From assembly GCF_048403405.1 (NCBI RefSeq), contig NZ_CP183129.1: a stretch of DNA of 64,000 nucleotides; one strand, 5' to 3'. This document shows, piece after piece, positions 7,798 through 51,398 of the stretch. The position numbers and the translations under genes are program-made. How positions within the stretch are numbered: the stretch's first letter is position 1; every line of letters begins with the position of its first letter. This DNA is from Escherichia coli. Its GTDB lineage: Bacteria; Pseudomonadota; Gammaproteobacteria; Enterobacterales; Enterobacteriaceae. The notes beneath the pieces are model-generated. The model did not search any database and was not told the DNA's origin. It was given only the letters and a program-made list of their open reading frames with translations.

Positions 7798-7930
7798 TGA
7801 TGTGCCACATCCGGCATGGTATGCCGGATGTGGCGTATGCTGATAAGACGCGCCAGCGTCGCATCAGGCAACCGGCTTGGGCGTTAGATGTCGGATGCGG
7901 CGTGACCGCCTTATCCGACCTACGGGGTGG
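7797..7930. repeat. REP/BIME palindromic repeat cluster between convergent mqo and eco
   Basis: Several imperfect palindromes of the GCCGGATG...CATCCGGC and GCCTGATGCGACGCTGGCGCGTCTTATCAG type, typical of enterobacterial REP elements. Confidence 0.6.
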
Positions 7931-40416: not shown

Positions 40417-40983
40417 TTAGCTGCGGCTGAGAACCCGGCGTGCTTCGTTGTAACGCTTCTTCCAGTACGGTTCATTCATGCTGGAAATAATAACACCACT
40501 GCTGGTGGAAGCATGGACAAACTGATTGTTGCCGATATAAATACCGACATGGCGTCCCGTTGAACCGGCACGGAACAGAACTAAATCACCCGTACGCAAA
40601 TTACTGCGGGAAACAGATTTACCCATTTCCTGCTGTTCGTAAGTCGAACGCGGAAGTTCTAAGCCAAATTGCTCACGGAATGTACGCTGTACGAAACCAG
40701 AACAATCGATACCTTTTTTAGTGCTGCCGCCCAGGCGATAACGTACGCCTTTCCAGTCAGCATACTGATCCATAATTCGCGATTTTACGTCGACATTACG
40801 AACCAGGTTTTCAAATTCATCCTGAGAAGCTTGCAGTGATGATGTTTCACTACCCACTGCACGTGTCTCAGGATGCATATTCTTTGCGGTGTTATTTGCA
40901 CTACATGCAGAAAGCAGAACCGCTACTGCAATCGCGGGAATCCCGCGCAAGATATATCTCAAAATCGGTTGAGATTTGACCAT
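40417..40983 (-). CDS. mepS: Peptidoglycan DD-endopeptidase MepS (Spr), NlpC/P60 lipoprotein
   Basis: 188 aa; lipobox LSAC; catalytic DCSGFVQ. Confidence 0.9.
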
Positions 40984-41394
40984 GTTGTTTGTTTTCCCTT
41001 GAAGTCCTTAACGACAAATATCGTTATAAAAAAATGCCAAGCGACACGAGACTAATTACCTGGGCATGTTGAAACAATTCCTTAAGGCCAAATCTGTGGA
41101 CTAACGCACAAAATTATATGCTGTGAGGATAATCTACCGCCGAGGCAAAACGAGTTCGAGATTACCCGATTGGTGCGGTCTTGGCGAGCGGTTTTACATG
41201 ATTTTTTATAAGAAAAAGTGATACAGAAAGTTAATAAGCGGGATTGGTCAATTAAAGTACGATTGAGTGAAGCGCATGCAATCCATTCATTTACTTAGAG
41301 AATGATTTTTGCGTTCGATAGATGAAAGCACGGTGCGCATCATCAGGATTATCCTCACTATAAAAATAACCCTGATGATGTTAATTACTGTGAG

Positions 41395-42108
41395 TTATTT
41401 GTTTTGGAAATGTTTGTTTTTTCCCGGTAGTGATTTGTCAAAAAAGGTGATTAATCGATCACTTAATGGCGTCAGCAACACCCAGGGCAAACCGATCAAT
41501 ATCACGGTCATCGAACCTACAATGATGTCAGTAAACCAGTGTGCGCCAATCATTACTCTGGGAAATGCAAAAACCACAAAAATAATAAGGGCGATAAGGC
41601 CTGCAACTTTGCCGAAATAACGCCACATGAATGCCGAAAAAATAAGCAGCATCATACCGTGATCACCGGGAAAGCTATCTCGTGAGGCATCTTTCGTGGG
41701 GACAGAGAGCAGTTCGCTGACGCGGTTAATATTGGTAAAAGTCAATGTTGGGCTGGCCCGTTTTACAGGAATTAATGCCTGACCCAGCTGGTTTAATACC
41801 ACTGCAGTTAATAGCATGACCAGACCAATAATCACGATACGTCGTCTGCCAGGGGCGTTTTCTTTCAGCCAGAAACTCAGCATCAACATTCCCATCGCCA
41901 GCAGAGAACAACCGTCGAAAGCGCGATTGTTGGTCAATGCAACCAGCCACAAAAAGGCCTTACTTTCGACCAGTTTCTGATTAAAGAAATAAAAAATATC
42001 CGCATCAATCGGCAACCAGAATCCATGATTAACGGGAATATACCAGGAAAGAAACAGCGCGAGGCCGACAATATTCAACAACACTATTTGCGGCAAATTT
42101 TTAATCAT
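41395..42108 (-). CDS. lpxT: Lipid A 1-diphosphate synthase LpxT (YeiU), PAP2 family
   Basis: 237 aa from the internal ATG (MIKNLPQIVLLNIV...). Confidence 0.85.
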   Translation of the reverse strand: MIKNLPQIVLLNIVGLALFLSWYIPVNHGFWLPIDADIFYFFNQKLVESKAFLWLVALTNNRAFDGCSLLAMGMLMLSFWLKENAPGRRRIVIIGLVMLLTAVVLNQLGQALIPVKRASPTLTFTNINRVSELLSVPTKDASRDSFPGDHGMMLLIFSAFMWRYFGKVAGLIALIIFVVFAFPRVMIGAHWFTDIIVGSMTVILIGLPWVLLTPLSDRLITFFDKSLPGKNKHFQNK

Positions 42109-51243: not shown

Positions 51244-51253
51244 TAAAAGGTGT

Positions 51254-51284
51254 GTTACAGGGCAGAAATTTCCTGCCCTGTAAC
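51254..51284 (+). terminator. Hairpin immediately downstream of fruA
   Basis: 12-bp perfect stem gttacagggcag/ctgccctgtaac with a 7-nt loop, followed by a moderately U-rich tract. Confidence 0.55.
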
Positions 51285-51398
51285 ATTTGATGCGCGCAAA
51301 GAGAATGACCGGTTTGTGAATGTAATTTTATGAATTTAAATGGTTTTATCTTTTAGTGGAAACCTGAAACTTTCATCAAACACTAAGGTTATTTCCTC

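Follow-up and report, generated by a model that had tools for sequence, protein, structure and literature searches.

We identified a stem-loop in the 3' untranslated region (UTR) of the yeiR-lpxT transcript of Escherichia coli that probably serves as a barrier to 3'-to-5' exonucleases, in which role it would define and stabilise the 3' end of the lpxT mRNA, with transcription terminating elsewhere or only inefficiently at the hairpin. The element is a single-copy RNA structure of 20 base pairs that forms in this length on the lpxT strand, is conserved with covariation across the Enterobacteriaceae, lies directly before the 3' ends mapped in vivo, and takes the form of a terminator in several other genera. 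One unannotated palindrome is explained in this way as the 3' boundary of the yeiR-lpxT transcription unit, which is ordinary and of little importance in itself.

The window analysed here is a stretch of E. coli DNA of 64,000 nucleotides, in which the open reading frame list places lpxT at 41395-42108 on the minus strand (stop codon 41395-41397; layout identical to K-12 b2174). Downstream of it and co-directional is mepS (40417-40983, minus strand), which has its own promoters. The original prediction placed an inverted repeat between these two genes. The location is correct, but the intergenic region measures 411 bp (40984-41394) rather than the 412 bp given; upon alignment, 3 of its 411 positions differ from K-12 MG1655, none of them in the hairpin. 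A repeat finder returned exactly the arms that had been described, a 15-bp stem with one mismatch around a 13-nt loop: the arms at 41338-41352 (CATCATCAGGATTAT) and 41366-41380 (ATAACCCTGATGATG) are 15 nt each, 93% (14/15) complementary and 13 nt apart. The distance from the lpxT stop codon to the stem, predicted to be about 15 bp, is 14 nt (41381-41394, minus strand, CUCACAGUAAUUAA). Within this spacer, different genera share a conserved AATTAA (41381-41386) directly 5' of the stem, though it lies outside both the reading frame and the stem. The reported absence of a T-run on either strand also holds, as the tail following the stem contains one T in eight nucleotides on the minus strand (CGCACCGT) and four in eight on the plus strand (TTAATTAC).

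Inverted repeats of this quality (15-nt arms, at most one mismatch, loop of 3-20 nt) are rare, with three found by an exhaustive count of the 64-kb window compared to approximately 0.05 expected from a simple probability estimate. The other two are located at 7803-7835, which is a REP-like GCCGGATG palindrome, and at 51253-51285, where a 15-bp stem (TGTTACAGGGCAGAA/TCCTGCCCTGTAACA) is followed by TTTGATG and thus forms a long hairpin with a weak U-tract.

The structure predicted for the minus-strand (lpxT-sense) RNA by minimum free energy folding is a 43-nt stem-loop, CAUCAUCAGGGUUAUUUUUA-UAG-UGAGGAUAAUCCUGAUGAUG, consisting of a 20-bp stem capped by a 3-nt loop (-25.8 kcal/mol, z = -5.1, with 0 of 200 shuffled sequences folding as well). 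The 5' arm occupies 41361-41380, the UAG loop 41358-41360, and the 3' arm, recovered by both the repeat finder and the fold, 41338-41357, all on the minus strand. The identical 20-bp fold is printed for lpxT in the TRS tables (PMC10687069, Supplementary Data 3), where it is assigned -24.8 kcal/mol. On the plus strand the best fold is a stem of 11+4 bp with a 13-nt loop (z = -4.3, again with 0 of 200 shuffles folding as well). The minus-strand stem reaches 20 pairs because four extra positions are G·U, and these become A·C mismatches on the opposite strand. The single mismatch between the 15-nt arms is likewise a G·U pair on the lpxT-sense strand. The difference between the strands suggests that the element acts as RNA transcribed from the lpxT strand and not as a DNA site. 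A search of Rfam at permissive E-values gave no meaningful match, only chance hits to eukaryotic miRNAs and snoRNAs with E > 0.3.

The lpxT mRNA is reportedly destabilised rapidly upon a shift from 30 to 37 °C, as mentioned in PMC7356881, and we considered an RNA thermometer. In silico, the hairpin is fully folded and unchanged from 25 to 70 °C, which makes it unlikely to be the sensor behind this temperature-dependent decay, and the thermometer was rejected.

Published maps of transcript ends place the 3' end of lpxT immediately beyond the stem. Adams et al. 2021 (PMC7815308, Supplementary file 1) list a Term-seq 3' end at K-12 position 2269627 on the plus strand, with a modest 1323 reads and for LB at OD 0.4 only. 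Conversion of K-12 coordinates through the alignment puts this end at 41335 in the window, 3 nt past the last stem pair, where the sequence reads ...CCTGATGATGCGC up to the end and ACCGTGCTTT after it. Its 'orphan' label in that table reflects nothing more than a cut-off, as the 'primary' class extends to 50 nt from the stop codon and this end is 60 nt away; its assignment to lpxT corrects the label. In TRS (PMC10687069, Supplementary Data 2-4), several datasets carry a 'Primary' terminus for lpxT, placed at 2269626 or 2269628, with fractions of 0.63-0.92, P values down to 1e-175, and a 3' UTR of 62 nt. Together these ends span K-12 2269626-2269628, or 41334-41336 on the minus strand of the window, 2-4 nt past the last stem pair. 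The original prediction had proposed mapping of lpxT 3' ends as a check and had named the lack of any end at the stem as evidence against the element; the published ends do map to the stem.

The transcription units found by SMRT-Cappable-seq (PMC6131387) agree with a boundary at this position. One unit covers b2173 and b2174 (yeiR-lpxT, start 2267795) and another b2174 alone (start 2268825), and both stop before mepS; b2175 (mepS) is listed with two starts of its own, 2269810 and 2269919, and with no others, and no lpxT-mepS read-through unit is present in the list. These starts correspond to the mepS P2 start at 41152 and the P1 start at 41043, both on the minus strand, and show the same 109-nt spacing as the two mepS promoters P2/P1 described in PMC10798246. 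Because the nearest mepS start (P2) is 186 nt further downstream, the hairpin belongs to the 3' UTR of lpxT and lies outside the 5' UTR of mepS. In the mepS region itself there are further Term-seq 3' ends, at K-12 2269973-2269975 (window 40987-40989), 4-6 nt before the mepS start codon, and inside mepS at 2270136 (approximately 40826), which suggest that some transcripts end early or are processed within the mepS leader and reading frame.

The hairpin is widespread in the Enterobacteriaceae. A scan of species-representative genomes based on LpxT yielded 80 loci from this family; lpxT and mepS are syntenic in 78 of them, the intergenic length is 411-427 bp in most, and a hairpin is found directly past the lpxT stop codon in almost all. 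Most other genera carry a shorter stem of 8-16 bp, and the spacing between the arms varies from 3 to 13 nt. The common stem core is CATCAGGGATCG-TTTT-CGATCCCTGATG. The stem in Salmonella is unrelated in sequence (TACCTTCAGCGATG/CATCGTTGAAGGTA), and that in Atlantibacter has yet another sequence (AAACCGCC.../...GGCGGTTT). In three loci (Kosakonia sp., Enterobacter sichuanensis and UBA3516) the lpxT frame stops 17-26 nt after the hairpin begins and runs through it, which places the stem-loop within coding sequence there.

Covariation is evident in an alignment of 73 of these sequences, where each of the 13 pairs tested has changed on both sides (98 cells), and the basal eight pairs of the 3' arm carry compensatory changes. 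Pairing is retained in 82.9% of cells, compared to 71.1% in shuffles, of which 0 of 500 reach the observed value, and 23-42% in slid-partner controls. Wobble cells (G·U or U·G) number 55 versus 31 for A·C or C·A. This support comes from the family-wide alignment only: when Escherichia is taken by itself, the changes are all one-sided and mediated by wobble pairs, with none that compensate on both sides, and the pairing is not significant relative to shuffles.

The surrounding intergenic region (40984-41394) is also strongly conserved, with its length kept and long, nearly invariant blocks shared by many genera of Enterobacteriaceae among the approximately 80 loci. One such block, CTTTCTGTATCAC...TTCTTATAAAAAATCAT (41196-41229), lies upstream of the mepS P2 promoter. 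The degree of this conservation exceeds what the known promoters explain.

The orthologous hairpin is followed by a T-run in approximately 15 of the 80 loci, including those of Klebsiella, Raoultella, Pseudenterobacter, Huaxiibacter, the Atlantibacter type, and some Enterobacter and Lelliottia. No T-run follows the stem in Escherichia, Citrobacter, or Salmonella. A terminator scan called the site terminator-like in Klebsiella oxytoca, Pseudenterobacter and Atlantibacter, and made no call at the site in Salmonella arizonae. The Klebsiella sequence ...CCCTT-TTTTT corresponds in E. coli to ...CCTGATGATG, whose GATGATG extends the stem by pairing with CATCATC. In E. coli the element thus occupies the position of a terminator hairpin without carrying a U-tract.

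This shared position raises the question of whether the E. coli hairpin terminates transcription by itself, as a non-canonical, U-poor intrinsic terminator possibly aided by NusA or NusG, with release a few nucleotides past the stem and the mapped ends representing lightly trimmed termination points. We consider this possible but on balance unlikely. Like the canonical terminators of the other genera, the element is a stable stem-loop shortly past a stop codon (a 20-bp stem starting 14 nt after it), and its 3' ends are sharp. The lack of an lpxT-mepS read-through unit in SMRT-Cappable-seq would also fit termination at the hairpin, as would the table of Rho-dependent termination of Adams 2021 (Supplementary file 2), which has no entry in 22692xx-22699xx and none for lpxT, although the strong mepS promoters 186 nt downstream could mask read-through from the weakly expressed lpxT. 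Moreover, Dar & Sorek (PMC6061677) allow for inefficient intrinsic terminators that are backed by Rho. However, the tail after the E. coli stem (CGCACCGU) contains a single U in its first eight nucleotides, where a U-tract would have at least five, only 5 of the 20 stem pairs are G-C, and the terminator scan made no call. The published ends at +2 to +4 also differ from the approximately +7 to +9, within the U-tract, that is typical of U-tract release; in the table of Adams et al., the canonical sgrS terminator ends at roughly its eighth U. The same observations agree with the original description of the repeat as not being a classical intrinsic terminator.

We favor a protective role, by analogy with a class of 3' ends described by Dar & Sorek in 2018 (NAR, PMC6061677). 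In this class a U-poor stem-loop is found at a sharp steady-state 3' end, transcription terminates downstream, and PNPase and RNase II trim the transcript back. The lpxT hairpin has two of the features that mark such stem-loops, a 3' end directly past the stem in two independent datasets and a low uridine content after it. RNA polymerase would transcribe the repeat as a stem-loop in the 3' UTR of the yeiR-lpxT transcript and continue beyond it, and termination would follow at some distance downstream, probably through Rho, or would take place at the hairpin with low efficiency only. The 3'-to-5' exonucleases PNPase and RNase II would then trim the tail until blocked by the hairpin, which would account for the ends 2-4 nt past the stem. 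In this way the hairpin would shield the lpxT mRNA from 3' decay and mark the boundary with the separately promoted mepS. In biological terms, it may mark where lpxT is insulated from an independently controlled cell-wall hydrolase gene. The alternatives offered by the original prediction for the repeat as a whole included an RNA stability or processing element, a protein-binding palindrome and a degenerate repeat element, and only the first of these gains from the 3' ends 2-4 nt past the stem, the compensatory changes, and the G·U pairs specific to one strand. Against the protective role stand the absence of the locus from the Rho table of Adams 2021, the limited detection of the Term-seq end, the missing covariation within Escherichia, and, as described below, a stem pair that is mismatched in most E. 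coli strains and an insertion in the 3' arm in one.

A candidate Rho loading region lies downstream of the hairpin and just upstream of mepS P2, at 41168-41247 on the minus strand, where 80 nt contain 24 C and 7 G; this stretch ranks in the top 0.6% of 80-nt windows for C minus G. A similar and equally strong skew is found in genera that have a U-tract terminator at the hairpin. Because the skew is present with or without a U-tract, it is not diagnostic of Rho, and we dropped it as an indicator.

Overexpression of lpxT is toxic, and the stability of its mRNA is regulated. A regulated element at the 3' end could link the expression of lpxT and mepS by controlling read-through, by pairing with the mepS P2 leader, or by contributing to the reported destabilisation of the lpxT mRNA upon the shift from 30 to 37 °C; we regard such a link as very unlikely. 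There is perfect 12-nt complementarity between the 3' half of the hairpin (41347-41358, GUGAGGAUAAUC) and positions +19 to +30 of the mepS P2 leader (41123-41134, GAUUAUCCUCAC). A comparison with E. albertii, Escherichia sp. MOD1 and a divergent E. coli shows that this match is confined to E. coli in the narrow sense. The leader segment is almost unchanged while the top of the hairpin changes in other Escherichia, so the match does not covary, and the long-range pairing was rejected. A full-text literature search found no paper that mentions both ProQ and lpxT.

Another way in which the stem could separate lpxT from downstream RNA is through cleavage of the 20-bp duplex by RNase III. RNase III needs a duplex of roughly this length at the least, and the stem reaches 20 bp in K-12-like strains. 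However, RNase III would cut inside the stem, and the stable 3' ends lie outside an intact one. The stem is also only 8-16 bp long in most other genera, and in most E. coli strains it is interrupted internally. The main polymorphism within the species is at the eleventh nucleotide of the 5' arm, which is G in K-12 and forms a G·U pair, but is C or T in other strains, such that the eleventh stem pair is mismatched in most E. coli strains (in E. albertii this nucleotide is A and forms an A-U pair). In the supplements examined from the RNase III study of Gordon 2017, there is no entry for lpxT, mepS or 22695/22696. Processing by RNase III is thus highly improbable.

The repeat could instead act as DNA, either as a palindrome bound by a transcription factor that controls the mepS promoters or as a promoter in its own right. 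A binding site might explain why the core CAGGGATC/GATCCCTG is conserved in many genera and why the whole intergenic region is unusually conserved. However, 186 nt separate the hairpin from the closest mepS start downstream, the G·U pairs break the symmetry between the strands, and both the arm spacing (3 to 13 nt) and the stem length vary. Furthermore, the hairpins in Salmonella and Atlantibacter are entirely different in sequence, such that complementarity is maintained and sequence is not, which argues against the protein-binding palindrome suggested originally. The chance of such a site appears minimal. No better are the prospects of the promoter-like sequence TTAACA-16-TATAGT (41357-41384, lpxT-sense strand), which matches 10 of 12 consensus positions and would start a third, long mepS transcript. 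Shuffled sequences are as rich in such matches (one found versus 1.6 expected), and SMRT-Cappable-seq lists no start between 2268825 and 2269810, with the mepS starts being only 2269810 and 2269919. Its -10 part lies in the apical stem and is not conserved outside Escherichia.

The original prediction had also suggested a degenerate repeat element, but at the sensitivity of our searches the hairpin is almost certainly not derived from a dispersed repeat or a mobile element (REP/BIME or ERIC, for example): only its palindromic and intergenic nature speaks for this, whereas a 68-nt query spanning the hairpin matched a single site in each of 5425 of 5426 complete E. coli genomes and no plasmid, no further copies with up to three mismatches occur in the 64-kb window beyond chance, Rfam offered no meaningful match, and the element is syntenic and vertically inherited across genera. 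The same searches answer the earlier concern that the element might be absent or unconserved in close relatives, as it is both conserved and single-copy in those genomes. A natural disruption is found in strain 20A24 (NZ_CP147044.1, 4341368-4341538), where IS1A is inserted inside the 3' arm, and the element is therefore dispensable at least in that strain.

The kind of element described here is well known, and this particular 3' end is already present in published tables of 3' ends, where it is left uncommented. What is new is the strand-specific 20-bp structure, the covariation across the family, the single-copy status, and the link to the canonical terminators of sister genera. A local contrast is provided by the terminator of mepS in the same window (K-12 3' end 2270620/1, approximately 40342), which likewise defines a 'Primary' 3' end in the same datasets. 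It consists of a GC-rich stem followed by UUUUUU, both of which are missing from the lpxT element. With canonical intrinsic terminators in general, the lpxT hairpin shares its position and its stability just past a stop codon, and its core stem AAGGGATCG...CGGTCCCTT is shared with Klebsiella and Raoultella, where TTTTT follows. The E. coli copy differs in having no U-tract and in its 3' ends at +2 to +4.

The REP/BIME elements that stabilise 3' ends are similar in being intergenic palindromic hairpins able to block 3' exonucleases. Peters et al. reportedly proposed a similar 3'-terminal role for REP elements earlier. Unlike them, the lpxT hairpin occurs once per genome, lacks the REP consensus, and has been passed on vertically together with lpxT.

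The closest resemblance is to the class of Dar & Sorek, with which the lpxT hairpin shares a sharp in vivo 3' end right after a stable stem-loop, the lack of both a U-tract and an A-tract, a sequence downstream with more C than G, and a weakly expressed gene. It departs from this class in its unusually long (20 bp), AU- and GU-rich stem, and Rho dependence and trimming are features that we infer for lpxT. Dar & Sorek 2018 (PMC6061677) proposed that stem-loops could switch between states with and without a U-tract in evolution. The lpxT hairpin is a clean and phylogenetically traceable case of this kind, with a U-tract in some genera and none in others.
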